Of a DNA stretch of 63,779 bases, positions 10,534 through 63,779 are shown one piece after another. The stretch comes from Schmidtea polychroa (taxonomy: Eukaryota): positions 73,656,222 through 73,720,000 of the forward strand of contig CM097885.1 of the NCBI GenBank assembly GCA_044892525.1. The letters are read 5' to 3'. Each line of letters begins with the position of its first letter. The stretch's first letter is position 1. The position numbers were made by a program, and so were the translations under genes. Below the pieces are notes generated by a model, which saw only the letters and a program-made list of their open reading frames with translations, was not told where the DNA came from and ran no database searches.

Positions 10534-10985
10534 TAATTCAGTTGTTTTTTAGCTTCAAATTGTTAATATTTATAAATTAAAGATTTTTGACCAAATTTAT
10601 TAATTATATTTGTGAATTTTATTTCGAAGAAACAATGTATCAGAAATCAATAAATTTGATTCGCTCAAATTAAGAGTAACATTTACGGTTCTGAGAGCTT
10701 CATCACCACCAGGGTTTGGATAGTCACCATTATTGTCTGCATCATTGATATTAATATTTTCAATTGTTTCACTGTCGTTAATCAATTATCTTGACATTTC
10801 ATTACTTCCTCTAGCCCAATTCAATATTTCCTCGTCATTCATTCAACTACATGTGGCTAAAAGCCTAGCAATGGAATTTCGGCTTCTTCTTAAAAGCGAT
10901 TCTGTGGAAAATTAAAAATTATTTCATCAATTGAGCAGAATAGATGTTTAAAAATAGAATTGACAGTTTGAATATTTACTTGGAA

Positions 10986-24844: not shown

Positions 24845-24980
24845 GCCAACTACTATTGAGGCTACTATGTGAACCGACTTTGCTTATGTCTTAAACATGC
24901 GTTCTCGCGTGAAATTAAACATAAAAACTAAGACACTATCTGTAGGCATACTGATCTAAAGGAAGTGATCTCTTAGGAAG

Positions 24981-27900: not shown

Positions 27901-28834
27901 TGCGTGTTTATTTGACAATTTACTAGTTCCTTTCTACACGAATTAATTGCGATGATTTTTCCAATATCTGAGTTTATGCTTTCTTGATCCATAACGTGAA
28001 TACTCGGTTTATTTGATCTACTTGATGATCTACATACTCCAGCAAAATGATTTAGTTTCCCACATTTGGTGCAATTTTTCCCAAAAGCAGGAAATACTTA
28101 CATTTCTCTCTTGGAATAAATTCTTTTGTGAATAAAATGTATTCATATTTTGCTCATCTTCATTTACTTTCTCGAAGTTTGCAGTGAATATCTTAAACTG
28201 TTCCATGTCTTGTATGATCTCTTGAATATGATCCACCGATAATTCGACGTGTCCTATTTTTTCAAGAAGGTATAATTTCGTTTTGTCGTCATAAAGACCG
28301 GCTATAACTGGCATTCTTATCATATCTTCTACTGAATCTTTTGATTCTTTTAGTTTCTCGAACTCACAGAATTGTGCGCCTTTCCGAATTCATACAATGA
28401 AATCTGAAATATTTTCGGATTTTTCATGTTTTATCTTGAAATATCTGCTTCTTTCTGCTACAACCAACCCTGATTTCGGATGTAAGTATTTCCGTATTGC
28501 TGATTCGATTTCTTCATATCTGCTCGTTTGAATGGTTCTTGGGGATAGAATGGATCGGATTTTGTTGTTCCTCGAAACCACATAAAGCCATGAAGTTGTC
28601 TGTAATTGATAATTTTGTTTCGGAATCAGTCCATTGGTTTATCCTAATTATCGCATTGAATGTGACTAGCCACGTTTCGCAATGGTCTGCATTTGTGAGA
28701 TCCATAGATGGTAATCCTGCTCGTGACGTCATTGAAGTGAATTGAATAATACGTTTTAATTCAAAAATCTATTCTTTTAAAACATCTGTTTATTTAAACA
28801 ATTTTAATAATATTAATTTCTTAATATTATTTCA
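24981..28834 (-). mobile_element. Degenerate Ty3/Gypsy LTR retrotransposon (Mag-like) with very short LTRs
   Basis: LTRs 24981-25097 and 28733-28834 (TG..CA, near-identical apart from a ~15-bp indel); flanks ggaag / gaaag (4/5). PBS 28714-28731; PPT agaggagga next to the left LTR. Broken gag (WL..F), protease DTGAD, RT SPVVWVKKENGDLRMCVDF, RNase H TDASLNAIGAVL..EREALA, integrase VDSGSGWIEA. Confidence 0.92.
28714..28731 (-). promoter_or_regulatory. Primer-binding site of the Mag-like element (tRNA-Ser-like)
   Basis: TGaCGTCACGAGCAGGAT, 1 nt after the LTR; resembles TGGCGTCACGAACAGGAT, complementary to the tRNA-Ser(CGA) 3' end. Confidence 0.6.
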
Positions 28835-43490: not shown

Positions 43491-46400
43491 TCAACTCCTG
43501 GAATGCAAATCATTGATTAGAGATAATAACGGAAACCAACCAATCAAACCCTTACCGAACTCGTATTTACTATAAATGCCTTTGAAGAACTGCTCAAGGG
43601 TGATCGCGAGATTCATGATATCACTGTCTGGCATATTGTAAACCTCAGCATTGAAGAACATTTGCCCGACATCGGAAAGAAAAGTTTTGAGAGAATCAAT
43701 ACCGGACGCATAGATTCCCTGTTTGTATTTGTCCATCATTTGAGCGAGATTAATCGGATCGGTAATAATCTGATAATAATCCGGAACCTAGACAGATCAA
43801 TAGATGATAGGTATAGATGTAATACAAGTTGTCCCCAATTACCTCTTCTGGATCGACGGGATCAATGAATGGCCAGGAGGCCTTGTGATTGATCATATTT
43901 TTCAGCATATGATAGCAAGCTTTCTCGATCTTTTCCGCTGACATTCCATTGCTGGATTTCTTTGGGGCTGGAGCCTTATTGTTGACATCTTCACCGTCAC
44001 CGCTACCGTTACAGTCCTGTTGTTCCTGCTTAACGTTTCCTGTACTGGCGATTGAACTGCGTTTCCGATTGGTGGAACGCTTAGTGCTTGTTAAATATGA
44101 CTCGATTTTATCCACTGATTTTATTCCGTTGCAGGATTTTTTCGGTGCTGGAGCTTTATCATTGTCACCATCTCCACCGTTACAGTATTGTTCCTCGGGA
44201 TTCTTCACGTTTCCTGTACTACTGGTGGTGAGTGAACTTCGCTTCCGATTGGTGGTACGTTTAGTAAACAGATATGGCAAATTATCGACATCTTGATCAG
44301 ACTCGTCGGAATCGGAATTATTGATCGGATCCAATTTTATTGATTCAACTGCCGGTTTTGATTCCTCCACAGTTTGATTGGTTTTCGCAATTCTCGATTT
44401 CTTTCGCAATGGAGGTTTCACTGATGACTTCTGAGATTCCCCTTCGCTGCACTCTCCAACGTCCTCTTCGTCGTCCTTTTCAATTTCACTGAACGGTTTC
44501 TTTTTCACTAACCCGTACTTGGTGTTGTTGCGTTTTTTAGTTCTGTTACGTTTTCTGCTGTGGTTTTTGTCGGGATCTTCATTGCTCGAGGAGTTCTGAT
44601 CGTCTTCGTTACCATCGGAATTGTTATTGACATCGGCAGCACCGACAGTTGAAATCGAACGTCTCGATAGTTTGCTATTGGTTTTGGTAGCCTCATCCAA
44701 TCGGCATTGACAACAGTGCCAATTGGTTCGTCTGATTTGTCTGAGAGGGGGCTCATGGCAATGAGCGTGGAATAATTTATTGCACGAGGTACATTTAGCT
44801 AATTGCTGTTCACCGTTGGAACTGTGGCACACAAAGCACTGTTCATGATGTGAGGTTTGTTGTCGGGTTTTGGATTTGATTGACTGGGTCACTGACTGGG
44901 CGGATGGGGCAACTGTCATAGCAACGGTGTCTGAGTCAGCATCGCGGGCCCTGGAAACGGGCTTGCAATGGGGACAGAACCACTCGCCATCTGGGACATC
45001 GTGTAAGGCCGGTCGCAGGCAAAACGTGTGAAATGCGTGATTACAACTGTCACACAGGAGCATTGAGTTCTCATCTGACGCCTTTCTGCATACTCGACAT
45101 TTGTCGTCCTTTGCCGATTTGCTCCAGCACACGCAAGCATCCAGGAAGGATTGCAGCATATTCAGTCTGGCTTGTGTTTGTGCCTGTTCAACTGCGTTAA
45201 GGAATTCGTTGCGCCCATTGGCTGATTTCAAGGGCACGTTCCAGAACCGCTCATGAACACCGAGGAATACCGACACGAGGGTTTCTTTCATTTCGTTGAG
45301 GGAAACCGCTAAATTGACCCGTTTCTGCCACTCGACATAATCCTCAACACCACCGAGGCTACCCTGTCTGATTGATATTTCTGTTTCCTTCAGTTCCCGC
45401 TTGAATCCCGCCACGAGAAATGACTGCTCATTGGAATCGGCTCCTATCGATGAGTTTGATCGAGTTGCCGGTTCAGTGATTGCTTTGGAAACCGACTGGA
45501 ATTCATCGGCCAATTTAGGCAGTAATGCCTCGAGTTCTGATTTCAATAGGCTCTCCCGGATGCCCTTATCTGAGAGGCAATTGAGCAATTGCTTGAGCTC
45601 ATCGTGAGTTGTGAACATGTTCCATTCGGTGAGCACGTGATCAGTAGGCACCGTACTGCTGCCGACATTCCCAGTACCGGTGTTGACTTGCTGCTCCATT
45701 TCGACATAAATGGCGCCCGGTGCTGAAAGAAAGTGCCAATATCGCCGGAAATGTCGATCGGAACCGAGTGGTTGTATTCGCATCAATTGCTTAGCTTCAT
45801 TCATTGCTGTAAAGTAAGATTTCTGAGATTGTTCCAATAGCTTCTTGTACTGGGTTTCGTCTTTCTCAAGCTTCTGATATTGTCGCTCTTTCTCTAACCT
45901 GCGCTCCCGTTCTTCGGACTCTTTGAGCTTCATTTCTATCGATTGACGCCTTCTGACAACTTGACTCGTGTCGTCAGTCGCTAAGGAGTCGGTTACATCC
46001 CCAGCCGTCGATTTGAGGGTGACATCATCAGTGCCAAACTTGCCCACGATCAATTTGCACATATCCTGCTTGCTTTGTCTGAGGGCCTTCAATTTGTCAT
46101 TGAATTCCTTTGTATCGGCAATCCGTTTCTTATACGCCTCGCACACATCCCGCTGGTAGTCATCAATGAATGAGCTGACAATGTCCAACTCGAGGATTCT
46201 ATTCTGCAACAGCTCCAATACACCGATTTTATCCTCAATGCTCAACTGCTGCAATTCGACAGTTTGTAGTTTCTCGCAAATAGGGCCAGCTATCCGCTTG
46301 TTATGGTTACAGTTCCAGATTTCTGTCGATGTCTGAATAGTAGCGGCAATCAATACCTGTTATTTATGTCCCAAACCCATTCAATCCTACCTCTTCATCA

Positions 46401-48823
46401 CCTGCATCTCCGTGCTGTTCCTTTATCTCATCGTTAGCATCCTCATTGCCATCATTGTCGATGGCTGGACGAGTTTCTCGCTTATCAATCCCGAGTAACA
46501 GAACGAGCCGCAATAACTCACCGGCAGTGCACACAGTGACTGGCAACTCGGTCAATGCCAATCCCATTTCTTTGCGACTCTAGAAATAACAAATGAAAAC
46601 TAAAAATATTAAAATCATCTCCCAAACCCTGATCCGACTGTCCTGTAGCAACGGTTTCAGGAGGACACACACGAATTCCGCCAGCATTTCATGGGAGTTG
46701 TCACAATCGTTGATAACCGACTGACAGAGATCACGAGCAGTCAGCACTTTGCTATCATCTGACGCTTCACCGGACGGCATGAGCAGCCGTTTATAGCAGC
46801 GCACGAATTCACACACCGATACCAATCGTGCCCATTGATCCTGGCTCATGCCACCTTCAACAGAGATCGGAGTTCCTTCTGGGACTTGTTCCGCATATTC
46901 CAATTCATTATCTTCTAATTTTGTGTTTTCTTCGCGTCTTTTTTCCCGTAACTGGCGTCGCATTTGATTGCGCCTCTCATTGAGATAGGCCTCTCTTTGA
47001 TCGGCAGTCATGGCGTCCCTGAATAATGCTCAATGTTAGCTAGGATTCAAAAGCACTGATTGATTGTCTACAGCTCCGCCAAATCACAGAAATACCCTAC
47101 CCCCTCCTCCCATCCTATAACAATTCATTCCTACCGCGTATAATCAAGATATATTGGAATATAGTCAGATACCCCCCCTAACTATACAAGAGTTAATACT
47201 ATTAAAATCAATAACATATCCCCCCCCACATTGAAACAAAATCTACAGATACGCCCTCACACAAAACCAATAACCAATCAAATCACTTACAGTCGTTTTT
47301 TCTCCTCGTATTTCTCTTTCCTGTCAGCAATCGGTACCCTAATCAGATCCGGGAACTTGGCAATCTGTTGATTACTGAACAGCTGACCACATTTGAATAT
47401 CAATTGCTTGACGTTTGGATCCGCTGGATTGTCCTTCATTAATTTCAACAATCGTTGAGCCAATGGCGGCAACGAACGCGTTGGACTGGACAGTGGCGAC
47501 CTTATTGCATTACTCGAGCTGGAATTGCGTTGACTAGCATTGCTTTGTGTTGTAGTTGACATCGGAACATCAAACAGTGTTGTTTGTTTTAACTTTTTAT
47601 TTTTAACGAATTTCTCTTTTGATTCATTTATCTGTGATTTTCGCTTGATCAATAAATTGTTCTCCTCATCGTCACTCCGAGTCAAATCGACCGTCGTGTC
47701 TTTGTATTCATCTTTCATTTTATTAAACATTTGGATTTCTGTCGCCTTTGATAACTCTTTCATCTGAATTCACAGAGGAAATTTATATTTTTGTCAAAAA
47801 TTATCTTCCCCACCTTTTGTTTGTCAACAGCGAATTCTGGTTCCAAATTCGGTAATCGATATTTCTTGACAAGTTCTTCGTCAACTACCCATGGATTATT
47901 CTGTTTACCAGAGTGTCTGATTGCGTGGGCACGAATGAACATTCGGATCTGATCTTTCGAAGGAGGCCTCAAGGTTCGCCTGAATATTTATTTTGTCAAA
48001 GAATATTCATAATCCAAATCAATTATTACTCAATAGTTTCTGATGGAATATCTTTCACTAATTTTTCCATTTCAAAAATTTTAACACTGTAAAAATAGTT
48101 CTTCTATACCCGAATAAGATTATATTTGAAAATATGGAAATTGCAAATTACTTTGACAGGAATAATTTTCTTTTTCATATTTTCTTTATCACTACTTGAG
48201 GCATCAGAATTAAGTTTAATTGGAGAATTCTATTTTACAAATTTATTTATAAGTTTTATTATTAATAAATATACTTCTTGATCTTCATTTGATCGAGATC
48301 TATCAACTTTGACTACTACACCTTTAAGACTATAAAAATAAGCCTTAAATATATATATAAAAAGAATGAAATCCTACATCATTTCTTTTGGTGCCGTTAG
48401 CTTAATTGTCACCGGTTCATTTACACAATACTCTTGATGAATTTGAGTCCATGCTTTATGTATAAGTGTATCTAAACTTTCCTTACCTGTATTAATAAGA
48501 TAAATACACGATAAATAAATATATATCAATTTACTGTGATGAACAAATTGTAAAACTGCAGCTTCAAAACATTTCTTAAAGGAGTTTTTTAACATTTTTG
48601 AACAACCTTGTTCGGATTTTAAAGCTTCTTTAAAAGTTAAATTAATTTGTCCAGTAATTCTACAAGTCCATATTTTCTGATTGTATAAAAACGTTTTTCT
48701 ATTAAATTCCTCATCATTTTCACATATTTCGTTAGTAAGGGAATGGCAAATTGTAGCATCCTCGTCCTTTTTGTCTTTTCTAATCTTATTTAAAATGTAG
48801 AGCTTATTGGATAATAATGGCAT
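43491..48823 (-). CDS. BAZ1B: BAZ1-family chromatin remodelling subunit, closest to WSTF (WAC-DDT-WHIM-PHD-PHD-bromodomain)
   Basis: MPLL..KIWTCRITG..LTFKEA..VLQFVHH (WAC); IRMFIRAHA..PWVVDEELVKKY; DDT LVSVCEFVRCY; LGSDRHFRRYW; two PHD fingers; bromodomain SWPFIDPVDPEE / VPDYYQIITDPINL..FFNAEVYN. The motifs match WSTF better than ACF1/BAZ1A. Confidence 0.85.
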
Positions 48824-49894
48824 CTAAAATCTAAATATTCAAATAGTAATTTAAGTTGAACAATTTATAAAAACAAAATAACAAGAAAACATCCCGCCAA
48901 AACTAGAAATTTAAAATATCAGAATTTAAAATAAATAAAGGAATTTACATAACTTACATGAAAATGTGACTAAATATAAAAAAATATTAATCAAACAAAT
49001 TTTTAATTGAAAAGATATCCTAAAATAATTCAAATTTAAATAAAATTTCAGGAATATTGAACATTAAAATAAAATAAATTGTATAAAACAATCTATATAT
49101 GATCATCAGAAATAATAGCGCATGTATTATAAAAGAATTATTAAAATTTTTCAAATTTCCATTAGTTATTAAATATAATTGTTTTGTTAAAGGTGAAGGG
49201 ATTCCGACTTCCTTTTTAAGAAGATATAGCATTCATATAAATAGGTACCAAATGTCAATAAATATTACCTCATCAACGCCAAGTTATAAAGTTGTAAAAG
49301 TTATATGTGATTCTCGTTTCTATAGCCTCCTTAAATGCCTTATTAGTATTAGGATATGTCCCCTACAGAACACGCCCCTACTCCCTGCTAAGGACAAAAG
49401 ATTTCACTAAAAAAATTTTACTTAATACTTTTGTGTAGGTCAACCGCATATCTTTTTACTTTTTACGATTTTCAGGTTTTATAACAACATTTTTTCTGTA
49501 TGTCAATTTTTTTTATAACAACATTTTTTCTGTATGTCAATTCAAATTCAATGATTTTCATAAAAATTTTCAGAGTANNNNNNNNNNNNNNNNNNNNNNN
49601 NNNNNNNNNNNNNNNNNNNNNNNNNNNNNNNNNNNNNNNNNNNNNNNNNNNNNNNNNNNNNNNNNNNNNNNNNNNNNNNNNNNNNNNNNNNNNNNNNNNN
49701 NNNNNNNNNNNNNNNNNNNNNNNNNNNNNNNNNNNNNNNNNNNNNNNNNNNNNNNNNNNGATTAAATAAATTAATTATTAAGTAGGTTACAGACGTACTC
49801 ACATACACTATATAGTTTTTTATTATTCCAACACAAAACCGGTCAAAGAAGAAAAATATATATGGTGGTAAAAAACTGCTTGTGTGCGTGTATG

Positions 49895-50343
49895 TGTTGA
49901 GGTCTCAGTATTTGAGATTCTCAAGGTTGCACTGGCTACTATATGGGTCTATCGAAATATAAAAACGAAGTCGAATATTTATTGAAATATAAAATATTAC
50001 CAATACAAATTTTCCAAATAAAATGATTCCACTGAAAAATGATGCGTGTTATGTAGGTGTTGTATGTTGTATATGCGTGTTGTGTATGATTGCAGAAGTT
50101 TAGAACGTTTCTGTATATGGATACAGAAACGTTCTAAACTTCTGCAATCATACACAACACGCATATACAATATACAACATACAACTAATAAGGATCTACC
50201 CTTTTTAGTTTGCTAAGAACGGTAAAAATTTTTGGGCGGCCACTACTGATTTTGGGTCACTATTTATATTAATTTTTCTGCGCGCTGGTGTATGGAAAAC
50301 ATATGTTATTATTAAAAATATTATGTTTTATTTGCTTTTTAAA
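49895..50343 (-). mobile_element. Older, diverged LTR fragment of the same family, interrupted by the young element
   Basis: Starts tgttgaggtctc like the young LTR and shares gaacgtttctgt, actaataagga..cctttttagt, ggt.aaa.tttt.gggcg and ctatttatatt blocks in the same order. Confidence 0.8.
50067..50170. repeat. Perfect 50-bp inverted repeat with a 4-nt loop
   Basis: 50067-50116 is the exact reverse complement of 50121-50170; loop atgg; arms extend ~9 nt further with one mismatch. Confidence 0.95.
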
Positions 50344-51446
50344 TGTTGAGGTCTCGATATTCGGGAACACTCAACTTACTGGTTCTTATATATGTACAAA
50401 TATATCAAAAGACAAAGTGATTTATAAAACTTTTATTATAAAGAAAAATTTACCAATATGAATTTGTTGCTAGATTACAAAAATCCAAAAATCCTTCAAA
50501 TATCCAACCGAATATGCTTGTATGTACTGTGTGAATGTTATGTATTCTCTTGCTGTGTTGCGTGTAGGCTTTTGAACGTTTCTGTTTGTCTGTTCGAGTT
50601 TTAGCACTAATAAGGATTAACCTTTTTAGTATGTTAACGCGGTTAAAATTTTGGGGCGAAGAAAATGAATTTTACCTCGCTATTTATATTATTTTTGTAT
50701 ATGAAATTAAATTGATATATTTTTTAAGTATACTTATATTTTAAAGTATTAATTAAAAATTAATCAAAGTGTTGATTATAGAAATTATATATGTTTTAAT
50801 TTTAATTATTAAAATGTCTAAGCATATGTTTTATAATTTTATTTATTTTGTTCAAGTGTTAATTATAGAAATATCTTTAATTTTAATTATTAAAATATCT
50901 AAGCTTATGTTTTATAATTTTATTTATTTTGTTCAAGTGTTAATTATAGAAATATCTAAGCATATGTTTTGTAATATTCTAAGATTAATTATTTTGAAAT
51001 ATCCACTTATATTCTAATGTTAATTACTTATATTCTTATTATTCTAGAAACATATGTTTTATGATTTTCAATATTATTTATTTTGTAATTCTAACTGATA
51101 TTAATTAAGATTATTTAATTAGTCCCCATAATATGTTTTATTTACATGAAATAAATAAGATACAATAATAATTGTCATAATAATAATCCACACACAATAA
51201 TAATAATCCATTCCACAACACAATAATAATTGTCAAAATAATAATTCAAAAATAAATAAGATATACAATAATAATTGTCCAAATCATGAATCAATGTGCA
51301 TAGTTAATAATCAAATGATAATCGTCATTGTTTTGACTTTGGTTATCTGGGTTCTACGTAGATGTTGACCCTGAACTTGTTGCTGCCCGTTCTGTAGTAG
51401 TGTGTTAGTTCAAATTCCTCAATTCTTCTTCCTCTATCATCCAACA
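50344..51446 (-). repeat. 3' LTR (predicted 1103 bp, TGTTG...CAACA)
   Basis: Identical to 62699-63779 through 51424. Inner boundary inferred at 51446 from inverted termini and the adjacent purine run. TATA box tataaata at 50681-50688; AATAAA near 50430 on the minus strand. Confidence 0.8.
50769..50975. repeat. Tandem ~81-87-bp repeats in LTR U3 (also present in the 5' LTR at 63124-63330)
   Basis: Units beginning gtgtt(g/a)attatagaaat at 50769, 50856 and 50937. Confidence 0.8.
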
Positions 51447-51912
51447 CTCCTCCTAGGGCCGATAAAGTAATGTCCTCATTACCTTTATCGCTGAGGACCA
51501 ATTCAATTTCGCAACCGTTTATATACATTGTTGCCCTTTGGAATCCTTTCTTTAACGCTAATTTTAACACATCACCATCAATGATTCGTCTACCGAAGTG
51601 TTGATGTATTTCTTTTTCCGAGATAGTGGATCTTCCATCTTTGATGATGAACATTGGCTCCTCCAACTCGACATTTGGCTCTGGTCCTAGTTCGTCATCT
51701 ATCTGCATTGCTTCGCTCGGTGAGAAATATTCTTCATCTGAGTCTAAATCACATTGTGGGTCAGCATAGTTGTAACTAATTGATGTCTGAGGTTCTTCCT
51801 TTATTTTGATTGCTTGTGGTTTTTTGTCCTCTTTGACGAATATGATGTCATCATCGCTGTCCATTAGTTCATCTTCAAAGGTACGTCTGCTCCCATCTTT
51901 ATTGAATTTCAA
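51343..51912 (-). CDS. Accessory ORF5: acidic protein of unknown function overlapping the PPT and U3
   Basis: 189 codons from TTG; frame open upstream to 51999; first ATG internal (MDSDDD); homologous relic at 11220-12030. Confidence 0.7.
   Translation of the reverse strand: MKFNKDGSRRTFEDELMDSDDDIIFVKEDKKPQAIKIKEEPQTSISYNYADPQCDLDSDEEYFSPSEAMQIDDELGPEPNVELEEPMFIIKDGRSTISEKEIHQHFGRRIIDGDVLKLALKKGFQRATMYINGCEIELVLSDKGNEDITLSALGGVLDDRGRRIEEFELTHYYRTGSNKFRVNIYVEPR
51447..51454 (-). promoter_or_regulatory. Putative polypurine tract
   Basis: AGGAGGAG directly before TGTTGG on the minus strand; the relic copy has AGGGGGAA-TGTTGG at the homologous position (11929-11942). Confidence 0.65.
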
Positions 51913-53222
51913 TTCTCTTTGTGAGGGTTCGATATATATATCTTCCTCAAATTCCTCTGGCTCATCCTGTTTTCTTCTATTGGACTGAGTTGATGGCCAT
52001 TATTTTCCTTTTGGAATGCTGTCATGTCCCACCTTATGACTTCTTCCCATTGCTTTTCGACCAAGAGGTAAATGACTTTTGCGATTAGTGTTGTATCTTC
52101 TGCTGAGAACGGTTCGGGTTTTTTGAGGATGTTGTTGATTGCTTTGTCTTTCTTCCATTTTGGGTGTGTTGCGATTACTTTGTATGCGAGATTCGATAGT
52201 TTGATTCTGTGTGGTGCTACATTTTTGACGAATGAACACATGAACACATCTTCAGCTAATTCTCTGACTCCCATGACATTGTACAGATCTAATGTCAGCG
52301 TCTTGAGTTTCTTTATTATTTCGTATCCCACAATGATTTTTCCGAGTAGCAGCTTCTGTATGTCGATCAGCGCTTGGTATTCGTCTTCATTTCCTCTTAT
52401 TGAATCCCTGTCTGCTCTTGTCTTCTCCGGGTAATAATGTTGGATTTTGGTGCGTGGAGTCACCTTTTTATTGTATACGATTTCTCCTCTAAAATTTCTG
52501 ATGCATATCTCTACTGGTCTGAGATTGTTATTGATGTCGCATACTTCTTTGACATCGACGAACATGATTGCCCTTTGTCGTTCGGGGATTGACAACTGTT
52601 GATGTGTGAATGACATCCGTTTCGAGATGAAATCTTGATGTATTACGATTTCCGACTGTATTATCTCTAATTCCCTGAAAGGATTGGGTATGGTTGGGAC
52701 ATATAGAATTTCGATAGCCATCACACAGGGTAAATTGTTCATTTGGATGACCAAATTGTTGAAATCGTTTGGCATGCTTCGATTCGTCTTCATCGTCTTG
52801 ATCACCACCGTGCAGTTGCTTGTTGTTATAATAGGGATTCGTTGTTGGCAAATTGAAACCTCCGTTCTGGTCATATGGAATAGTATTCTATGTGGGACTT
52901 TTCTTCCTTCATTTGCTGCGATATCTGCATTTTCGAACATATCATAGGTGCCTATTATATCTCTCAGCTTTATCCTTCGGGCTTCATTAAATTTAACTAA
53001 GTGCATTTCTCTTTCTTCGATTTCGCACTTCATTTCATTGGGTATGCAGACCTGGTTAGGGATACTTCTGATGGTGATTGGTGAGCCGTCTGAGGTGATT
53101 TTATTTTGCAAATTTTTGTAGAAACTGTGGTATAGTTTTTGAATGGAGCAGCTGTATTGTTGGACTGGACGTTGTATGGGATTGAATGGTTTGGGATTGA
53201 CTCTGGTATTGTTGGATTGCAT
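51909..53222 (-). CDS. Accessory ORF4: unknown N-terminal domain plus REX4/ISG20-like DEDDh exonuclease fold, probably inactive
   Basis: Likely start MQSNN (ATG 53222, preceded by tttttttag). FVDVKEV..VEICIRNFRGEIVYNKKVTP..IQHY..IQKLLLGKIIVGYEIIKKL..FSAEDTTL..IYLLVEKQWE aligns by eye with REX4/ISG20. Confidence 0.75.
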   Translation of the reverse strand: MQSNNTRVNPKPFNPIQRPVQQYSCSIQKLYHSFYKNLQNKITSDGSPITIRSIPNQVCIPNEMKCEIEEREMHLVKFNEARRIKLRDIIGTYDMFENADIAANEGRKVPHRILFHMTRTEVSICQQRIPIITTSNCTVVIKTMKTNRSMPNDFNNLVIQMNNLPCVMAIEILYVPTIPNPFRELEIIQSEIVIHQDFISKRMSFTHQQLSIPERQRAIMFVDVKEVCDINNNLRPVEICIRNFRGEIVYNKKVTPRTKIQHYYPEKTRADRDSIRGNEDEYQALIDIQKLLLGKIIVGYEIIKKLKTLTLDLYNVMGVRELAEDVFMCSFVKNVAPHRIKLSNLAYKVIATHPKWKKDKAINNILKKPEPFSAEDTTLIAKVIYLLVEKQWEEVIRWDMTAFQKENNGHQLSPIEENRMSQRNLRKIYISNPHKEN

Positions 53223-53367: not shown

Positions 53368-54192
53368 TTAAACCAATGAGGACATTGTGTATTGTCCTGG
53401 CCTATACTTATCCAAATGAAAATGCCCTGGTACATTTTTGACCAGTCGGTGCCGATACCGCTGCCTTTTCCATTTGTATTTTTTATACACTTGAACACTG
53501 GTGATAATAGCTAAAATACTCAATGCTAAAATGCTTGATGAAATTACATAGAAAGGCCATCGTGGTTTAGCAGGTTTTACTTGAAATGCTCTTAGTTCAT
53601 CCCAGTTATTTATGATTATGGGTTTTCCCGTAGGTAATTTTATCAGTTTCCTATCAAACTGTCTTAGATTTTTTATTATTAATTTTTTATATACTTGTCT
53701 AGTTACTTTAAATGTCGTTTCTCTGTCTGTGTTTGTTATCGTTTGTAATGACTGTTGGGTGGATGCCGAATTTGTGGTAGTTATTGTTATGGTGGTTGTT
53801 GGCATGCTATTATCTATGGGCTTATATATGTTTGTGATAGTGGTTCTTATTCTTTTGCACCTTACTTGTGATGTGTCAACTAAGGTGTTCCATTGTGCAC
53901 AAAGTGTGTAATTAGTGTTAGGCTGTAGATTTATGAATTCAACATTGTCTCCTCTTTCAAATTCATTAGTTGATCTATTCTCAATTTTTTTCATAAGCTT
54001 GGGTATATCGTCCCCAGTTTCTAGATATAAGTCTCTTATGGGTGATTTATTCAAGTTATATACTTTAATTTTATACGGTGAAATGTTGATTAAAATATCT
54101 TCCTCCATGTATTTTACTGAGTGTATGCTCTCATTTTCTACTTCAGTTGATTTACATAGCCCTATAATTGTTAAAAAGATCGATCGCTGCCA
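53368..54192 (-). CDS. Accessory ORF3: type-I membrane protein (FN3-like domain, Thr-rich stalk, TM, basic tail)
   Basis: NLQPNTNYTLC (FN3 LxPxTxY), PTTTITITTTNSAST, TM WPFYVISSSILALSILAIITSVQVY, then KKYKWKRQR. ATG at 54108, but the frame is open to 54192 with signal-like RSIFLTIIGLCKS. Confidence 0.7.
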   Translation of the reverse strand, partial: WQRSIFLTIIGLCKSTEVENESIHSVKYMEEDILINISPYKIKVYNLNKSPIRDLYLETGDDIPKLMKKIENRSTNEFERGDNVEFINLQPNTNYTLCAQWNTLVDTSQVRCKRIRTTITNIYKPIDNSMPTTTITITTTNSASTQQSLQTITNTDRETTFKVTRQVYKKLIIKNLRQFDRKLIKLPTGKPIIINNWDELRAFQVKPAKPRWPFYVISSSILALSILAIITSVQVYKKYKWKRQRYRHRLVKNVPGHFHLDKYRPGQYTMSSLV

Positions 54193-57100
54193 TCATCAGT
54201 GCTTTTTGTGATCGTAATCCATATTTGTGAGGTGGTTTTTCTATTAACTCTGTTTCTGATAGTTTGCATCTATTAACATGTACTATTATCGGATCCTCAT
54301 TTTTATGTTTTTGTAAATGCAGGTTTTCATGTACTACTTTTACTACTTCGTATGGTCCTTTAAATGGTCTTGCTAATTTAGTTGTTTTGCCTTTACCTAC
54401 CTGTGGAGACATAAGTCTAACCTTATCTCCCACTTTAAAATTATGAGGTTTGCTATTTTTATCATAATCTGCTTTATATTGTTCTTGTCTGAATTTAACT
54501 TTTAAATTTGCAACCTTATATACCTCTTGTAATCTCTCTTGCATTAATGTTACATTATCTGGCGCATCTAAATATTGTGATACTCGAGGCTCAAAAATTG
54601 TATCAATCGGTGTCGCAGGCTCTCTTAAGAACATTAGAAAATATGGTGAATATCCCGTTGTCTCATTTGGTGTGATATTATGGATGTATGTGCATTGATT
54701 AACGTATTCATCCCAATCATTTTGGTTTTTTCCCACAAACACAGCTAATCTACTTAGCAATGTCCCATTGAATCTCTCTACTAAACCATCGGTCTGAGGG
54801 TGGTATGCTGTTGTGTTGATTTTATGCATGTTAAATATGTTAGCTACTCTTTTTATAGTTTCACTCATGAAATTTTTCCCTTTATCTGTTAATAATTTTC
54901 TCGGTGTACCGATTTTAAAGATTATTTTTTCCACAAGTAATTTAGCTACTGTTTCTGCTGTTTCATCTTTTGTAGGAAATGCCTCTGCCCATTTTGTAAA
55001 ATAATCGCTAAAAACTAGTATGTGCTTATTCCCATTAATTGTTGTGGGTAGTTTACACAAAAAATCCATTGCGCACAGTTCCATTGGTGATGTTGTAGCT
55101 GGGATTGGATGTAAAGGTGCTTTAGTTTTTGTTCCTGTATTTTTTCTAGTTGCGCATATTGTGCATGCATTACACCATCTCTTGACATCCTTTTTCAAAT
55201 CGTCCCAATAATATTTTTGCATCAATCTGCTTGCTGTTTTCCTACTTGATAAATGACCTCCTAGAGCACCATCGTGATATTGTAATAGAAGAATTTGTCT
55301 TAATCTTTGTGGTACTACTATTAATTGTTTACCGCTAAAATCCTCAATAACAATTAACTTCTTACAGATTTTATACTTTTGGTTAGTTCCCTTTTTTATT
55401 TCTTCTCTTATCTTGAAGAGTTCTGGATCTTTCATTTGTTCCTCATATATTTCTATTGGTTTTTCAGTTACTAATGCAAAAACTTCTAGTGCTCCTAACT
55501 CTGGAATTCGTGATAATGCATCTGCATTCCTGTTTATTCTACCTGGTTTGTATGCAATCTTTATGTGCATGTCTTGTATTTTCATTGCCCATTTTAACAG
55601 TCTACTGGATGTATCTTTATGTTTCCATAACCCTTCTAATGGCTTATGGTCTGTTCTAATTACTACTTCAGTTCCATATATGTATGGTTTAAATTGTTTT
55701 AATGCAAAAACTATAGCATAACATTCTTTCTCAATTGTTTAGTACCTAATCTGTGCTCCTTTTAATGTTTTGCTTGCATAAGCTATTACATAATCTTTAC
55801 CCTTTTCCTCTTCTTGTCCTAAGACTGCCCCTACGGCCTTCCCACTGGCGTCTGTCATGACAATGAACTGTTTTTTAAAGTCTGGGTATCTTAGTATCGG
55901 TGCTGTTATTAATTTTTCTTTTAGTTGATCAACAGCTTTTTGGTGTTCATCTTTCCATTTCTTTTGTGGCTTGTTAATTTTATCGTTAATCTCTTGTACT
56001 ATTAACACTCCTTTACTCTCTCCCTTTGTTTTGACTCCTTTTGTTAACTCAATTAGTGGTGCTGCTATATTTGCATAATCTTGTATGAATTTACGATAAT
56101 ATCCTGTGAGACCTAAAAATCCCTGTACTTGTTGTAATGTTTTTGGAACTGGGAATTTTTTAACTACTTCAATTTTATCGGGATTAGGTATTATACCATC
56201 TACTGTAACTATATGTCCTAAGAATAATGCTGAAGGTTCTGCCCATTTACACTTAGTGGGTTTTATTTTGATTTTTGCTTTTCTTAATCTTTCTAGTACG
56301 TTAGCTATATCTTTTAGATGTTCCTCAAATGTTTTTGATGAAATTAATATATCATCCATATATACTGCGCAATGTTGTACGTCTACTAATACTGTATTCA
56401 TTAAACGTTGAAATGTTGCTGGCGCATTAGTTAACCCAAAAGGTAATCTTGTATATTCATATAAACCGTCTTCTATCACAAAAGCTGTCTTTTCCGCATC
56501 CCCTTCTTCCATTTGAATTTGCATGTAGCCTTTATTTGCATCTATTACTGTGAAATATTTAGTATCACTAAGTTTATCATATTGTTCTTGTGCTTTTGGG
56601 AATGGGTATGAGTCTTTTACTGTTACATCATTTAATTTACGATAATCAATGCACATTCGAATTTCCCCGTCTTTCTTTCTAACTGGTACGATAGGTGATG
56701 CCCATTGTGAAAAACTTTGTTTTATTACGCCTGCCTCTTTTAATTCTTTAATTTGTCGTTTTATTTCCTCCCTCAGTTTATATGGTACACTATAGGGTCT
56801 CTGTTTTATTGGTCTAGCATTCCCTGTATCGATTACATGTTTGATAATGTCAGTATCTCCTAAATCAAATTCGTGTTTTGCAAAAACATCACTGTATTCG
56901 TCAAGTAATATTTGTAGTTGTAGTTGTTGTGTTTCATTTAGATAATTATTATTTATTTTAATTTTATCATAAAATTTGATATTATTCGCTCTACTCTGTT
57001 CGACCATTCTTTCACTGACATCCTTCGTCATCGACATCTCACATACTTCAAATGTTTGTTCTAATTCACCTTTGAACAACTTTCCCAATTTTGTACCTTT

Positions 57101-60100
57101 ATGAATTTTTACTTTATTTCTTTCGTAATTCGCGATTCTTATTGGAATTATCCCATTATTTGGAATTACACACTCGTCTGTTAACATTACATTATGATTT
57201 CGTGATATTGCCGTTTCAGGCTCAAAAATGAAAGTGTCCTCACTTTTAACATTAACTTTTACTGGAATTATATGATCACTTTGATACTCTAGTTCAAATG
57301 TCTCTAATGCAATTACCTCAGTAAATCTTGCGTCTTGATATATTGCCTTCCGTTTGACTGTACTATCCGTTAAATCGATTACACAGTTTTTTAACTTTTT
57401 GAGTATGTCCATCCCAAGGACACATACGCATTTACATTCTGCTACTACCTTGAAGACATGTTCAACCACTTGATCCGAAAAGTGGACTGTTAATTCGATA
57501 TCTCCTTTTAATGGTATGTAATGTGATGATAATGAAATTACTCTATCTCTTGTGCTCACGATATTTTTCTTTTGGTTTCCGGTTAACTGATCTTCACGAA
57601 TCATAGAAGCTGCTGCTCCTGTGTCACATAATGCCTTTATTATCGTATCATTTATCACTATTTGTAATTTAGGCCTTGCTTCATTTAACCCTTCTAATAT
57701 ATCGTCAAGTTCTAACCCGTAACATCCATAAGTTTTCCTTGGAACACAATGACAATTACCATTTTCACCTGGGATTCTAATTTCAATATTATTTCTTAAT
57801 TCTGTCAATTGTTCTCTTTGATTATCATATAACCCAATATGTGGTTGATCAATATTTTCTGATTTGTTTGCCTCGTCATCTTTCTCGTTGGTGATCATTA
57901 TTTCACCCTCTTCCCTTCGACTTTTCATCCGTTTGATTTCCTTATCGTGCCTCGCAGTGATCAAATATTTGGCTATAAATGGACATAAACATGCTATCAT
58001 TTTATATGAATTACCAAAAACTTGTCTCAGTTGTCTTAACGAAACTAATGATGAGCAAATCATTTTCAATAGTGCTAATGTATAATATATACCCAATATA
58101 GTGGAAAACGTATTTCCGAGAATCGCAAAATATCCCCATATGCTGTATAATACTCTATACACAACTTTCTTGAAGTGCTCTTTTGATAATAATACGTCAA
58201 AGTTGTAATTTCCTCCATAACTATTTTCGATGATTTTGTTTACCATGATAGAAAGAACTTTTTCTTTTTCATGAGGAAATAACATATGTTTTCTGGCGCT
58301 CTCTATCGCCTCTCTCGTATACATCCCATTGTTATCCATTTCGTTGACTTCCTGAAATTCTAACTTTTTCTCAAGTTCAGTTAGTTCTAGTTTTTGTGGT
58401 TTAGTCGCTTCTTTTCTATCTGACATTGTAATCCACATATCATCATTTATTTTGTATAATGGATCTAATAGATTAGTACATTTATCAATTTTTCTCGGAA
58501 CATAGTCTTTATCTGTTAATATCCTTGTTATTGGTTGGAGGTATACAGTTTCTCCTTTATACACTACTGGCAATTCGTTTGTGCACTTATTATTCGTTGC
58601 TAACGATACGCTAACCGGTTTACACTGAAATGTTTGTATTACTTCACCGACAACTCTTGCAAATGTCCCTTTTTCTGCAAATAAAATTGGTGCCATTAAA
58701 TCTGGGTTTGTGACTGCAACCGCCATCTTTGTCCTTAATATTTCTCTATTAAGTTTACAATCGTTTGCGATAGTTGCTTGGTACACCTTGTCCAATTGTA
58801 CTAACTGATGATGATAGAAATAGTCAATTTTATTATTAAAATATGATGCTAGCTTGACGTCGAATTTATCTATTCTCGATTTTGCCTCTTTAATTTCACT
58901 TCCGCTGATATAAATTCCCTCATAATTTGTTTGTACGACTGCCTTGCCGCATTTTATACTTTCACCTTTTCCCACAAATCTCATCGCTTCTGTCTCAGAA
59001 TCTGACATGTATATTGTTGGGGTATCTCTCTCTTGAATTATCGTAGCTCGTCGCTTTTGATCTTTGATGTTCTTGGATTCTACATCCGTAAACTGTTTAC
59101 CTCGTATCGTTCTGAATTTCAGTGTCTTTAGTTTAGTTAGATGGCATTCGTATTTATTCACTCTGTATATGATCATTGACTCGCCTGTATCACAGCTTGT
59201 CTCATCTAATGTGCAGAACTTATGTGTCATCATTTTCTTTGATGCACTATCAAATGACGCTTTGAATTTCCTTAATTCAATGTAATACTGCCGTCTCACT
59301 ACAATATTGTCTGCCACATGCCCCCATATTTTATACCTTCCTCCTTCACAATATCCTCCTGTTGATGACCATCCCACGACATTTACTAATTGTCTTACTC
59401 GTGCTCCTACTTGAGCATCTAACTCAAATCCATCCGGCGTTTTTATCTTTTTTGTTTTAAATGCATTTTCGCATTCAACTGGCGTTATTATTATTGCTTC
59501 TGGTGCCCATGTTGGAGTTAATATTGTTCTCGCTATTTTATTACATACAAAACTTTCCTCTGAATATTTAACGATACATTCTCCTGCCTCAGTGTGAATG
59601 AAATCAGATTCCTGATATATATGGAAAATCTTGGGATCTGCTACAATTAATTTTGTTGGATTAGCCTCTGGGCAATTTTCTACATCTAGCAATGAATATT
59701 TTTGTCCCCACTTGGGATTCTGACAATCATACGCTATGATCGCATTATTCCCTTTTATCAGATCTAATAACAATGTTATTACTATAATTACTATTGACAT
59801 TGTCGACTTTCTTTCTTTTTGACTTGGTTTCATAGTTGTTTTATTTACTAGATTTTTTACTGTTTCCTCCGTATCATCTATTTCTACGTTAATATTATCT
59901 TCTACGCTTTTTTGAGCACTTTCGATTAGACTCTCATCATACAGTATTTTCCATCCTCCCTTTAATTTTATCCATGGCATAGCATCTATCTTTAGTTTAT
60001 TATATATCATTTTAGCGATATTTTCTATTTGATTCTTTGGATTCAATCGCAAAAGTTTCTTGTATCTTGCTATTAAATATGCCATTGCCGTAATCACTTT

Positions 60101-60334
60101 ATCTCGATTAACTCCTGTTGTAAATAATATCTTTAACACTGTCTCTTCATTTGCTTCCTCTGCACTCAATTCTCTAATCTCTTTTTCCATTAATTTAATC
60201 TTTTTAACTATATTTTCTATTAACGCTGATGGTTTTGCTTCCGGAAATCGTCTCATATTCATTGCTTTAACTAACTCTGTTATCATTTTTATATCCTTGT
60301 CATTATCCTGATTTTTTGGGACTTCCTGTCTCAT
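54152..60334 (-). CDS. env-pol: Env-Pol polyprotein: helical leader, signal peptide, chuvirus-like fusion protein, TM, protease, RT, RNase H, integrase (one in-frame TAA at 55739-55741)
   Basis: Signal peptide 59800-59750; AYDC 59734-59723; TM ~58140-58050; protease LCDTGA ~57626; RT SQWASPIVPVRKKDG..RMCIDYR, LPFGL, YMDD 56362-56351; RNase H TDASG..YASKTL..Y*TIEKEC..TDHKPL; integrase HHCC, MDF/TDKG/ERFN, GPY motif. Confidence 0.93.
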
Positions 60335-60374: not shown

Positions 60375-62453
60375 TCATCTGACTTTTCGAGGCCTTCCTC
60401 TACTTCGTCTCATCGTCTCTGCGTCCTGCATATTTGCTTGTTTCGCAATTTTTTCTATTGTCTCATGTAAATTATCATATTTAGTCTCAATAGGTTTAAA
60501 GATTTCATCGCTAACTGTTGGTGACCTCATTGCTCCTCCTGAAGAAGCATCCCATAATCTAAATAATTTGTCATAGTCATTTTCGTCGTTTATACCCAAT
60601 TCTACTGATGGAATTGATGCATCCATTTCATTATTTTCTTGCCTTTCTATTACGGCAGTAATAATATTATTATCGATAACGTTTACCCCGTAGTCGATTA
60701 TATATTCGTTATTCATCATTTCTACACCGTTAAAATACAGTTTTACTTTATCATTATCTCCCAATTTCTCGGGCCAATTAGCTCTGGCCATCTGTTTCAC
60801 TTTATTCACTTTTGTGCAAACATGTACCCCTGTACTACGCATAAGTATTCTTGAAAGGTCTTTTGCCTCAATAGTTATATTCAATGACTCATGTAATTTC
60901 TGATTTTTTCTCACAAACTCACCATAACATTTTATCATTTCTTTCAATTCTATTTCTAGTTCAAATACTCTTGTCATATTTTGTCTCTTTACCATTATTG
61001 GTATCAAATTTCTCAAATATTCTAAGTCAATTCCTTCGACTTGAACTCTATTTATTATACGCAATGTCTCATTATCATCATAAGGCCATTTCTCTAATGT
61101 CTCTTTCAATTCCTCTTTTAATTCTTTACATCTATTTGCTTCTGCAAGAAATATCTCATCCGCTTCTCTTGCTTCACGAAACTCATCATTATCTATATCT
61201 ACATCATTAGTAAAACACTGAAACTCATTTAATGACATTTCTAACTTTCTCTCAATAAGTCTCCCATATTGAGTTTTAAATTCTTTTAATTCCTCTCTCA
61301 AACTGTTTATTTCATCATTAGCTGATATCAACTCAGCACTATTAATCTGTTTTATCTCAGGCTCATTTTTAAATCTCACTCTATTAGGCGATTCGCTTCG
61401 CGCATTATTACATACTTTAGCTAAGTGACCATATTTTTGGCAATTATAACATTTGATTTGTCCATTAAAATTTACTTTATCTCTACCATCATTATTATAA
61501 GGGCTTCCTCCCCTTTCTCTATATGAATTCTGTCTATATGGACTTGTCTGTCTACGTCTCAAATCATTTGTATTATCTCCATTATCATATCTATTACTTC
61601 TATCATATTTATTATTTCTCAAATTATTTCTACTAAAATCGACTCGATTATCTCTCGTATAATTAGTTCTATTGTATTCATATCGATTATCTCTATCAAA
61701 AGTGTTTCTATTGTTTCTATTCTCAAAGTTTCTGTTTCTCGCATTATCAAACCTCCTCCTGTTTTCAGGCGATTGACTTCTATCAGGACTCGGGCTTACC
61801 CTTCGTCTATTTTTTACAAAGTTTAAATATAGTTGTTTCATCTCCTCCCAGGGGATGTTGTCATCTGACTTACCCAACTCAGATTTTACCTCTATGGGTT
61901 TTTGGATTTCCATTGCATCTACATGTGAACTAAATCTATCTCGTTGTATTGCTTCTATACGCTTAGCTTTATGAACTAATTCATTTAAATTACCATATTC
62001 TACCATAATTAGCGCTTTATATAAATATTTTTGTATACCATTCCAAAACTGATCCTCAATTAATTTTGCTGTGTGCTCACCTGCACCAAATGCCTTTTTC
62101 GCTAACTCCGTAATTGTATATACATATTCACCAACTGATTCTCTAGTACCTTGATATCTGTTTCTAAATTTTTGAACATTTATCTTTTGTAAATCGCTAT
62201 CGATTACTATTTCTGCCCTCAGATATCTTACGAGTTGATCAAAATTATTTCCTTTACACTCTAAGTTATTGTATGCCTGTAACGCATAACCTTTTAAATA
62301 TAATGGGATTCTCATTTTTAACTCATCAGGTGTCCAACCACAAGCTTCTGCATACTGAGCGATCTCAGTGAAAAAATCGTCGAACTTTTCAGGCTCTCCT
62401 CTATATGGTTCTACTGGTAAAATTTTTATGTAATTATTATTATTATTATTCAT
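60375..62453 (-). CDS. gag: Gag (capsid, R/N/D/S-rich region, CCHC zinc knuckle, coiled coil, ubiquitin-like domain), 692 aa
   Basis: LKMRIPLYLKGYALQAY..RYQGTRESVGEY (retrotransposon capsid); CYNCQKYGHLAKVC; long C-terminal extension. Confidence 0.92.
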   Translation of the reverse strand: MNNNNNNYIKILPVEPYRGEPEKFDDFFTEIAQYAEACGWTPDELKMRIPLYLKGYALQAYNNLECKGNNFDQLVRYLRAEIVIDSDLQKINVQKFRNRYQGTRESVGEYVYTITELAKKAFGAGEHTAKLIEDQFWNGIQKYLYKALIMVEYGNLNELVHKAKRIEAIQRDRFSSHVDAMEIQKPIEVKSELGKSDDNIPWEEMKQLYLNFVKNRRRVSPSPDRSQSPENRRRFDNARNRNFENRNNRNTFDRDNRYEYNRTNYTRDNRVDFSRNNLRNNKYDRSNRYDNGDNTNDLRRRQTSPYRQNSYRERGGSPYNNDGRDKVNFNGQIKCYNCQKYGHLAKVCNNARSESPNRVRFKNEPEIKQINSAELISANDEINSLREELKEFKTQYGRLIERKLEMSLNEFQCFTNDVDIDNDEFREAREADEIFLAEANRCKELKEELKETLEKWPYDDNETLRIINRVQVEGIDLEYLRNLIPIMVKRQNMTRVFELEIELKEMIKCYGEFVRKNQKLHESLNITIEAKDLSRILMRSTGVHVCTKVNKVKQMARANWPEKLGDNDKVKLYFNGVEMMNNEYIIDYGVNVIDNNIITAVIERQENNEMDASIPSVELGINDENDYDKLFRLWDASSGGAMRSPTVSDEIFKPIETKYDNLHETIEKIAKQANMQDAETMRRSRGRPRKVR

Positions 62454-62678: not shown

Positions 62679-62696
62679 TCCCGGTTCGCGGCACCA
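62679..62696 (-). promoter_or_regulatory. Primer-binding site (tRNA-Phe- or tRNA-His-like)
   Basis: TGGTGCCGCGAACCGGGA, 2 nt inside the 5' LTR end CA. Confidence 0.85.
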
Positions 62697-62698
62697 AA

Positions 62699-63779
62699 TG
62701 TTGAGGTCTCGATATTCGGGAACACTCAACTTACTGGTTCTTATATATGTACAAATATATCAAAAGACAAAGTGATTTATAAAACTTTTATTATAAAGAA
62801 AAATTTACCAATATGAATTTGTTGCTAGATTACAAAAATCCAAAAATCCTTCAAATATCCAACCGAATATGCTTGTATGTACTGTGTGAATGTTATGTAT
62901 TCTCTTGCTGTGTTGCGTGTAGGCTTTTGAACGTTTCTGTTTGTCTGTTCGAGTTTTAGCACTAATAAGGATTAACCTTTTTAGTATGTTAACGCGGTTA
63001 AAATTTTGGGGCGAAGAAAATGAATTTTACCTCGCTATTTATATTATTTTTGTATATGAAATTAAATTGATATATTTTTTAAGTATACTTATATTTTAAA
63101 GTATTAATTAAAAATTAATCAAAGTGTTGATTATAGAAATTATATATGTTTTAATTTTAATTATTAAAATGTCTAAGCATATGTTTTATAATTTTATTTA
63201 TTTTGTTCAAGTGTTAATTATAGAAATATCTTTAATTTTAATTATTAAAATATCTAAGCTTATGTTTTATAATTTTATTTATTTTGTTCAAGTGTTAATT
63301 ATAGAAATATCTAAGCATATGTTTTGTAATATTCTAAGATTAATTATTTTGAAATATCCACTTATATTCTAATGTTAATTACTTATATTCTTATTATTCT
63401 AGAAACATATGTTTTATGATTTTCAATATTATTTATTTTGTAATTCTAACTGATATTAATTAAGATTATTTAATTAGTCCCCATAATATGTTTTATTTAC
63501 ATGAAATAAATAAGATACAATAATAATTGTCATAATAATAATCCACACACAATAATAATAATCCATTCCACAACACAATAATAATTGTCAAAATAATAAT
63601 TCAAAAATAAATAAGATATACAATAATAATTGTCCAAATCATGAATCAATGTGCATAGTTAATAATCAAATGATAATCGTCATTGTTTTGACTTTGGTTA
63701 TCTGGGTTCTACGTAGATGTTGACCCTGAACTTGTTGCTGCCCGTTCTGTAGTAGTGTGTTAGTTCAAATTCCTCAATT
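62699..63779 (-). repeat. 5' LTR (truncated by the window; predicted to end near 63801)
   Basis: Matches 50344-51424 with no differences noticed. Confidence 0.95.

Follow-up and report, generated by a model that had tools for sequence, protein, structure and literature searches.

The window, by which we mean the whole analysed stretch of 63,779 nucleotides, is AT-rich animal DNA with short introns. On its reverse strand lies a retrotransposon in which the usual env position, after the integrase, is occupied by an open reading frame, ORF3, while the fusogen is found instead upstream of the protease and does not adjoin ORF3. This arrangement raises the question of what ORF3 encodes and what its product does. 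A first-pass annotation had proposed a second membrane protein in the env position, with a hidden signal peptide that overlaps the integrase end, and possibly captured from a host receptor. The position of this protein was confirmed. As for its nature, we consider it fairly likely that ORF3 is the last module of a family-wide polyprotein, namely an old second type I glycoprotein that faces the host and may act as the attachment partner of the fusogen. The anatomy of ORF3 as a polyprotein module can be regarded as very probable; attachment as its specific function, which is suggested by analogy, is plausible and falls somewhat short of probable.

The element carrying ORF3 is a young Ty3/gypsy LTR element, and its order gag-Bcl2-gB-type fusogen-PR-RT-RH-IN is the known GAG-ENV-POL or Burro-like layout. 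The LTRs, the PBS and the pol order PR-RT-RH-IN place it in Ty3/gypsy (Metaviridae), and env lies between gag and pol (PF24664 upstream of RVP), as in the gB-type GAG-ENV-POL elements. A stop in RNase H interrupts the ORF that spans RT and integrase, and the element also has two frame breaks. The repeats at 50341-51424 and 62696-63779 share 1084 nt at 100% identity, the second being truncated by the end of the window; the LTR spacing is 12355 nt, and the element measures about 13-14 kb. Its parts are as follows.

62699-63779, reverse strand: 5′ LTR, cut by the window end, terminating in CA
62679-62696, reverse strand: PBS-like 18-mer that begins with TGG, 2 nt past the LTR end
60375-62453, reverse strand: gag with a CCHC knuckle (zf-CCHC, E 5e-4), terminating at a frame break where the relatives run on
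59951-60217, reverse strand: Bcl-2-like domain ahead of the fusogen's signal segment (PF00452, E 2.1e-6, 28.7 bits against a cut-off of 31.4)
57848-59740, reverse strand: gB-type (class III) fusogen (PF24664 Monjiviricetes_fusion, E 6.9e-90), in frame upstream of the protease
55742-57682, reverse strand: protease, reverse transcriptase and first part of RNase H (RVP, RVT_1, RT_RNaseH)
55739-55741, reverse strand: in-frame stop within RNase H, where all 6 relatives with the region are continuous
54152-55738, reverse strand: rest of RNase H and integrase, with YxLR near the end (RT_RNaseH, Integrase_H2C2, rve)
53368-54192, reverse strand: ORF3
51909-53222, reverse strand: ORF4, 437 aa from the ATG, with a weak ISG20-like exonuclease resemblance
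51343-51999, reverse strand: ORF5, acidic, extending into the 3′ LTR, possibly a continuation of ORF4
50344-51424, reverse strand: 3′ LTR, whose start is not determinable since the 5′ LTR is cut

The PBS-like 18-mer had no match in the element table of Chary & Hayashi, as far as that table was accessible (PMC13524379). For the Bcl-2-like domain, a PDB sequence search gave no Bcl-2 match, and weak Bcl-2 Pfam matches were also found in three relatives (P0001, P0007 and P0002). The N-terminal part of this domain lies upstream of the first ATG of ORF2, and the fusogen's signal could stay on the domain as a tail anchor. The exonuclease likeness of ORF4 (ISG20/DEDDh) was seen with ISG20L2 (E 0.064) and ISG20 (E 0.091), and no Pfam match was obtained for ORF4.

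The ORF3 frame is open over 274 codons, and its first ATG is codon 29, so that 28 codons lie upstream of it; relative to the integrase tail the frame is +1, as had been annotated. When the 10.5 kb coding strand was shuffled 300 times, the longest open frame obtained had 160 codons. The following parts were recognised in and immediately before ORF3.

54154-54202, reverse strand: putative internal signal segment, split over two frames (the relatives' runs have 10-19 residues, n = 5)
53824-54102, reverse strand: predicted FN3/Ig-like beta-sandwich (ORF3 aa 31-123), complete from the ATG, with 2 Cys and 4 sequons
53928-53908, reverse strand: LxPxTxY motif inside the FN3/Ig-like domain
53713-53802, reverse strand: Thr/Ser-rich stalk (aa 131-160), 53% Ser+Thr
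53494-53553, reverse strand: single transmembrane segment (aa 214-233), from hydropathy
53368-53484, reverse strand: basic stop-transfer (net +7) and cytoplasmic tail of about 40 residues

Five sequons are present, NES20, NIS36, NKS48, NRS72 and NYT94, of which NES20 lies upstream of the ATG; the first-pass annotation had listed four of them and missed NIS36. Its Thr-rich stalk, single TM and basic stop-transfer were all recovered: the best 17-mer of the TM (aa about 214-233) has a KD of 2.35, the 15 residues C-terminal of it carry a net charge of +7, and the tail has 41 aa. The signal-like segment that it had placed upstream of the ATG was found as well, as a hydrophobic 9-mer with a KD of 2.81; with the threshold set at this observed value, 2.8 was reached by none of the 498 windows of 14 codons taken off-frame from the element, 100 of which are stop-free. 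Hydropathy, sequons and flank charge would thus fit a type I membrane glycoprotein whose signal is split by a frame break.

The relationship between this frame and the integrase can be clarified by inspecting related polyproteins. With the fusogen as the query, 7 relatives of 855-2723 aa and 4 of at least 2724 aa were collected, which are 33-40% identical and are known as predicted proteins, not as DNA. The integrase end is reached by 6 of these 11; P0001, P0002, P0004, P0005 and P0007 stop before the integrase and are not counted. Five of the six (P0003, P0006, P0008, P0009 and P0011) run on in frame: a hydrophobic stretch of 10-19 uncharged residues comes first, next an ectodomain that measures about 125-370 aa, and last a TM followed by 27-99 aa of tail. 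The search limited to at least 2724 aa favours long C-terminal extensions, and the less biased set of 855-2723 aa gave two out of two. The sixth, P0010, is without the module and has a protease-like domain and no TM. A YxLR motif past the integrase anchor occurs in all six.

In the present copy, two uncharged runs abut. The first belongs to the integrase frame (54202-54182; 7 residues, mean KD 2.5) and starts 7 residues after YxLR; the second belongs to the ORF3 frame (54183-54154; 10 residues, mean KD 2.45). In P0011, a single 19-residue uncharged run begins 6 residues after YxLR. In the simplest reading, one signal segment has probably been split by a frame break near 54183. The first-pass annotation had noted that the removal of one G in atgatggcag fuses the frame to the integrase, and the fusion agrees with the ancestral state indicated by the five relatives; the break itself, judged from the abutting runs and from the P0011 run, probably lies a few codons further downstream than that site. 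A separate gene with a hidden overlapping signal is probably not what ORF3 represents, as the relatives' module is continuous with the integrase.

This junction is not the only one at which the copy departs from its relatives. Besides the stop in RNase H, gag and Bcl-2/env are in different frames here, with a +1 junction, while gag and env belong to one protein in seven relatives (P0001, P0005-P0009 and P0011). A decayed sister fragment at 10980-12030, which joins ORF4 and ORF5 in one frame, hints at a fourth break. Since at least three breaks occur where the relatives are continuous, the copy is most likely defective or mis-assembled. The identity of its LTRs is odd for a copy with 3-4 breaks, and the combination suggests that either the assembly is in error or the copy is defective and was mobilised in trans. 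Every round of retrotransposition makes the two LTRs identical again, and a trans-mobilised defective copy would look no different.

Three explanations of the junction compete with simple decay of a polyprotein. If the breaks were errors of assembly or sequencing, the real element would be an intact, active single-ORF provirus; the identical 1084-nt LTRs and the openness of every downstream module speak for this, but two other long frames of the window, a host exon of 770 codons and a transposase ORF of 489 codons, are unbroken, and the LTR identity would be the same for a copy mobilised in trans, so that we regard this explanation as unlikely. A programmed frameshift at the +1 junction, by which the glycoprotein would be made at a lower level than Pol, is in line with the likewise +1 gag/Bcl-2 junction and with the frequency of recoding in LTR elements. 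It is nevertheless improbable, because the relatives are in frame at both junctions, the RNase H stop shows damage in this copy, a shift in mid-signal would be an odd design, and no known slippery site was recognised by eye. Slightly less improbable is the translation of ORF3 from a subgenomic RNA spliced to an acceptor near 54162, in which the signal would come from an upstream exon and the T-rich tract would be the acceptor. The AG at 54162 is preceded by 11 pyrimidines in 18 positions, and the element probably splices, as its best acceptor-like site (14 of 18 pyrimidines, 1 of 357 YAG sites) lies 5 nt before the ORF4 ATG; moreover, the post-integrase ORF of Cer1 is in the polyprotein frame and yet spliced, according to the accessible part of its description (PMC10309623). 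On the other hand, 33 of the 357 YAG sites of the element score as well as 54162, and splicing there would remove the hydrophobic run that the relatives keep in frame.

We therefore return to ORF3 as the last module of a polyprotein, and consider the contents of the post-integrase slot. In P0009 the parts follow one another as in ORF3: a single domain with the motif, then a Thr-rich stalk, a TM and poly-Arg. The ectodomain of P0011 is without the motif, and that of P0006 is different and Cys-rich. The motif LxPxTxY, which we take to be the FN3 tyrosine corner (before strand F), occurs in ORF3 at aa 89-95 and also appeared in 108 of 20000 shuffles. In its strict form, LxPx[TS]xY, it was found in three of six ectodomains (ORF3, P0003 and P0008), a number reached in none of 20000 joint shuffles, and it is absent elsewhere in those six polyproteins. 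Apart from this, ORF3 showed no significant similarity to the relatives' ectodomains: the pairwise z was 0.7, and in the profile tests 188 of 2000 and 445 of 1000 shuffles scored at least as well. In contrast, the ectodomain units of P0003 and P0008 were linked by profile tests (0-3 of 1000 shuffles). The common descent of the ORF3 domain thus rests on position and one motif. The RT of the element is at most 55% identical to those of the relatives, and trees with 6-10 relatives leave its position unsettled. Because the slot is nevertheless common, it must be old, and its content diverges or is exchanged.

Some further features of the relatives were observed. The P0008 ectodomain (3314-3615) consists of three units, two of which have identical Cys spacing (13, 13, 3), and this internal repeat is related to the first unit of P0003. 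Aspartic-protease-like domains occur after the integrase in P0008, P0009 and P0010 and after env in P0001, P0002 and P0005; several relatives have two or three of them, one right after the integrase. P0001 has ankyrin repeats, P0010 has C2H2 fingers, and P0007 gave a weak ubiquitin-like match. P0003 (HBK71150.1) is a eukaryote-type retrotransposon polyprotein labelled as a Flavobacteriaceae MAG protein, and this label is probably due to a binning contaminant.

For the FN3 fold that had been annotated, the motif was verified, and membership is likely without being established. Pfam fn3 (PF00041), the sole family reported there, matched ORF3 with E 0.14 and 12.9 bits against a cut-off of 25. Single-sequence models reached a pLDDT of 46 when built for aa 16-210 and of 62 when restricted to aa 16-123, and show seven main strands. 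The best VIA-align Z for the ORF3 models was about 7.2-7.3, and none was 8 or higher. With the domain model, 20 of the 50 VIA rows carried a title naming FN3, fibronectin or monobody, and other beta-sandwiches were tied with them; two entries reached the top Z of 7.2, an Ig-like DUF3244 protein (rmsd 3.0 over 89 aligned residues) and IFNAR2 D2 (rmsd 2.9 over 75). Foldseek placed FN3 and further Ig-like domains at the top of its list; E ≤ 0.001 was reached neither there nor in a viral fold library. FN3 domains have a conserved Trp in strand B, which is absent from the ORF3 domain; its only Trp lies in the sixth strand. Judged from these models, the domain is probably Ig-like and likely a degenerate FN3. 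We had considered that its first beta-strand lies upstream of the ATG, but this was withdrawn: the FN3 alignments begin at the ATG, and the fold is thus no proof that the upstream codons are translated.

Two readings accept this anatomy and assign it another origin or another job. The proposed capture of a host receptor gene would, if recent, make ORF3 a piece of such a gene. The FN3-stalk-TM plan is common among animal receptors, animal FN3 domains fill the structural lists, and a replacement within the slot is possible, given that ORF3 is not detectably similar to the relatives' ectodomains. The closest host FN3 protein, which the first-pass annotation had proposed to find, did not emerge, however: no homologue was obtained among 1.84 billion representative proteins at E ≤ 0.001 or among 522 word-sharing candidates, sets from which the host proteome may be missing, as five proteins encoded in the window are absent from them. 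A PDB sequence search with ORF3 returned one irrelevant match (E 1.3), and two scans of bacterial and archaeal genomes for contaminant copies found none. In addition, third-position base use in ORF3 is A-rich like that of the element's env, and the slot is common to elements that are at most 55% identical in RT. In the absence of a homologue in the protein sets, recent receptor capture is unsupported, and we judge it very improbable. The same anatomy may alternatively serve host modulation, as a ligand decoy, in receptor blocking and superinfection exclusion, or as a glycan shield. This is compatible with the other host-modulating cargo of the element (the Bcl-2-like domain and a possible exonuclease), with ectodomains that differ among the relatives, as expected of exchangeable cargo, and with the tied structural matches, which include FN3 domains of cytokine receptors and an interferon-binding protein of a poxvirus. 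Those matches, however, are tied with many unrelated beta-sandwiches at Z 5.9-7.2, and the TM anchor and stalk in five of six relatives, in one chain with the fusogen, would fit a role on the particle surface. Host modulation is thus somewhat unlikely, though it is the most credible of the rival explanations.

How rapidly the module changes was examined in near-copies of the relatives, in which its frame stays open. Between P0008 and P0014, 53 of 371 ectodomain residues differ as against 16 of 478 in the integrase (p 8e-9), while 12 of 12 ectodomain Cys are kept. In four P0009-type copies, 17 of 340 module sites vary, whereas env varies at 2 of 650 sites and pol at 0 of 1141. In five full-length P0008-type copies the excess was not significant (4/471 versus 1/626; p 0.17), and two P0011-type copies are identical in the module. 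In two of three near-copy comparisons, pol thus changes far more slowly than the module, and so does the fusogen in the single significant case for which env is covered. By analogy, a conserved fusogen and a variable stalked partner would look like a system with an attachment or host-interaction protein. The fast change fits relaxed constraint equally well as a host arms race; the TM and tail also vary. For the P0014 ectodomain, the Atlas gave no usable match.

Taking ORF3 as the second type I glycoprotein of a polyprotein, we propose the following scheme. The translated order would be Gag-(Bcl-2-like)-signal-gB-type fusogen-TM-PR-RT-RH-IN-signal-ectodomain-stalk-TM-tail; this in-frame layout is seen in the relatives' predicted proteins, and the present element has these parts in this order. 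As expected from standard membrane-protein biogenesis, the hydrophobic stretch past the integrase would act as an internal signal, and the polyprotein would cross the ER membrane at two points, first for the fusogen and again past the integrase. The FN3-like domain and the stalk would enter the ER lumen and become glycosylated, the TM with its basic flank would halt transfer, and signal peptidase would free a type I glycoprotein, a head on a stalk, alongside the fusogen. In the least certain step, the ORF3 protein would be displayed on the particle or the producing cell and bind a host surface molecule, as the partner of the class III fusogen in attachment and tropism. In this copy, the link to the integrase would be interrupted by the frame break inside the signal.

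Herpesvirus class III fusogens depend on separate receptor-binding partners, and herpesvirus gB with gD/gH-gL and paramyxovirus F with HN/G are two-part entry systems. The element resembles them in that its conserved fusogen is accompanied by a distinct surface protein that is variable and stalked; the resemblance is no more than an analogy, and no sequence or fold link between ORF3 and their attachment proteins was found. On this analogy we tentatively suggest a two-glycoprotein entry in gB-type Ty3/gypsy elements, in which a conserved class III fusogen would be combined with a swappable, fast-evolving FN3-like receptor binder after the integrase that sets tropism. The elements using it may, with the same reserve, form a deep-branching group with both proteins in one polyprotein. 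If true, this would be a division of labour as in herpes- and paramyxoviruses, which is undescribed for retrotransposons in the literature searched. For the recognition of target cells by gB-type errantiviruses, the slot for a second glycoprotein is a concrete candidate, both for tropism and for soma-to-germline or host-to-host spread. Surveys that annotate only gag, env and pol overlook one module, and in this group an "ORF in the env position" should not be equated with a "fusogen". Should the function instead be that of a decoy or shield, a surface protein would be added to the anti-apoptotic cargo known from Burro-like elements.

The type of element and the Bcl-2 cargo are already known, while the slot itself seems new: a description of a second type I glycoprotein after the integrase was not found in the literature searched. 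The report of Sacco et al. 2022, said to concern nematode gag-env-pol elements, that of Grohme et al. 2018, reportedly on Burro, and figures and bioRxiv supplements could show one. The planarian giant gypsy Burro/GYPSM1 is described, in the accessible part of PMC6431247, as having Gag, a BCL2-like domain and an in-frame mononegavirus-like env, then PR-RT-RH-IN, in one ORF. Like Burro, the present element has a Bcl-2-like domain (here below the Pfam cut-off) and then an in-frame env before PR. According to the same text, the two differ in size (about 13-14 kb versus more than 30 kb with an ORF of about 4900 aa), and the dUTPase, BIR, MATH and ankyrin domains of Burro have no Pfam counterpart in this element; the text on Burro there mentions no membrane protein past the integrase, on which its figure may differ. 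GAG-ENV-POL errantiviruses with an HSV/gB-type env occur in Nematoda, Bryozoa and Platyhelminthes, as far as the accessible part of Chary & Hayashi indicates (PMC13524379), and share with this element the Ty3/gypsy pol order, the gB-type env upstream of pol, the LTRs and the PBS. Intact ORFs were required there, unlike in this broken copy, and "Fibronectin" and "Bcl-2" are absent from the main text and 7 supplements.

Accessory proteins in comparable positions are known from other elements. Bdelloid LTR elements have small TM ORF3s and DEDDy exonucleases downstream of pol, according to the accessible part of PMC5408684, from whose text "Fibronectin" is absent; their ORF3s replace env, whereas here the TM protein is additional to a full fusogen. 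CERV of Cer1 in C. elegans, as the part of PMC10309623 mentioned above describes it, is a nuclear RNA-export factor made by splicing. In Cer1, too, the env position after the integrase is thus held by an ORF other than a fusogen, but ORF3 differs from CERV in its signal, sequons and TM. The sORF2 of the Drosophila MDG1 group is an accessory TM protein tied to cell-to-cell spread (PMC11952523, in part); unlike ORF3 with its folded, stalked ectodomain, it is a short fusogen-like protein in env-less elements. Troyka was set aside as a match for the element, as its LTR terminates in CG in the portion of the source available, and that of the present element in CA. The accessible part of PMC3315495 contains nothing on env.

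Several minor features of the window were also recorded. The sister fragment at 10980-12030 (+) comprises the end of ORF4 and the start of ORF5 without an ORF3 part, with amino-acid identities of 55-71% and 34-43%, respectively. Both LTRs of the element contain an 81-nt tandem duplication (50795-51014 and 63150-63369). An inverted repeat with 76-nt arms (50041-50196) lies beside the 3′ LTR, and a related LTR-like piece, 76% identical over 93 nt (50184-50276, within 49880-50340), adjoins it; the element may have inserted next to an older relative. A second, decayed element at 24980-28830 (−) retains protease and RT remnants, flanked by short direct repeats about 3.74 kb apart. An intact-looking Tc5/pogo-like DDE_1 transposase ORF of 489 aa is found at 30432-31901 (+). 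Host gene pieces with short introns lie at 9098-9550, 17318-20538 and 43750-48823, and represent a plasma-membrane Ca-ATPase, EDC4/Ge-1 and a BAZ1/ACF1-like gene (WAC, DDT, WSD, PHD).
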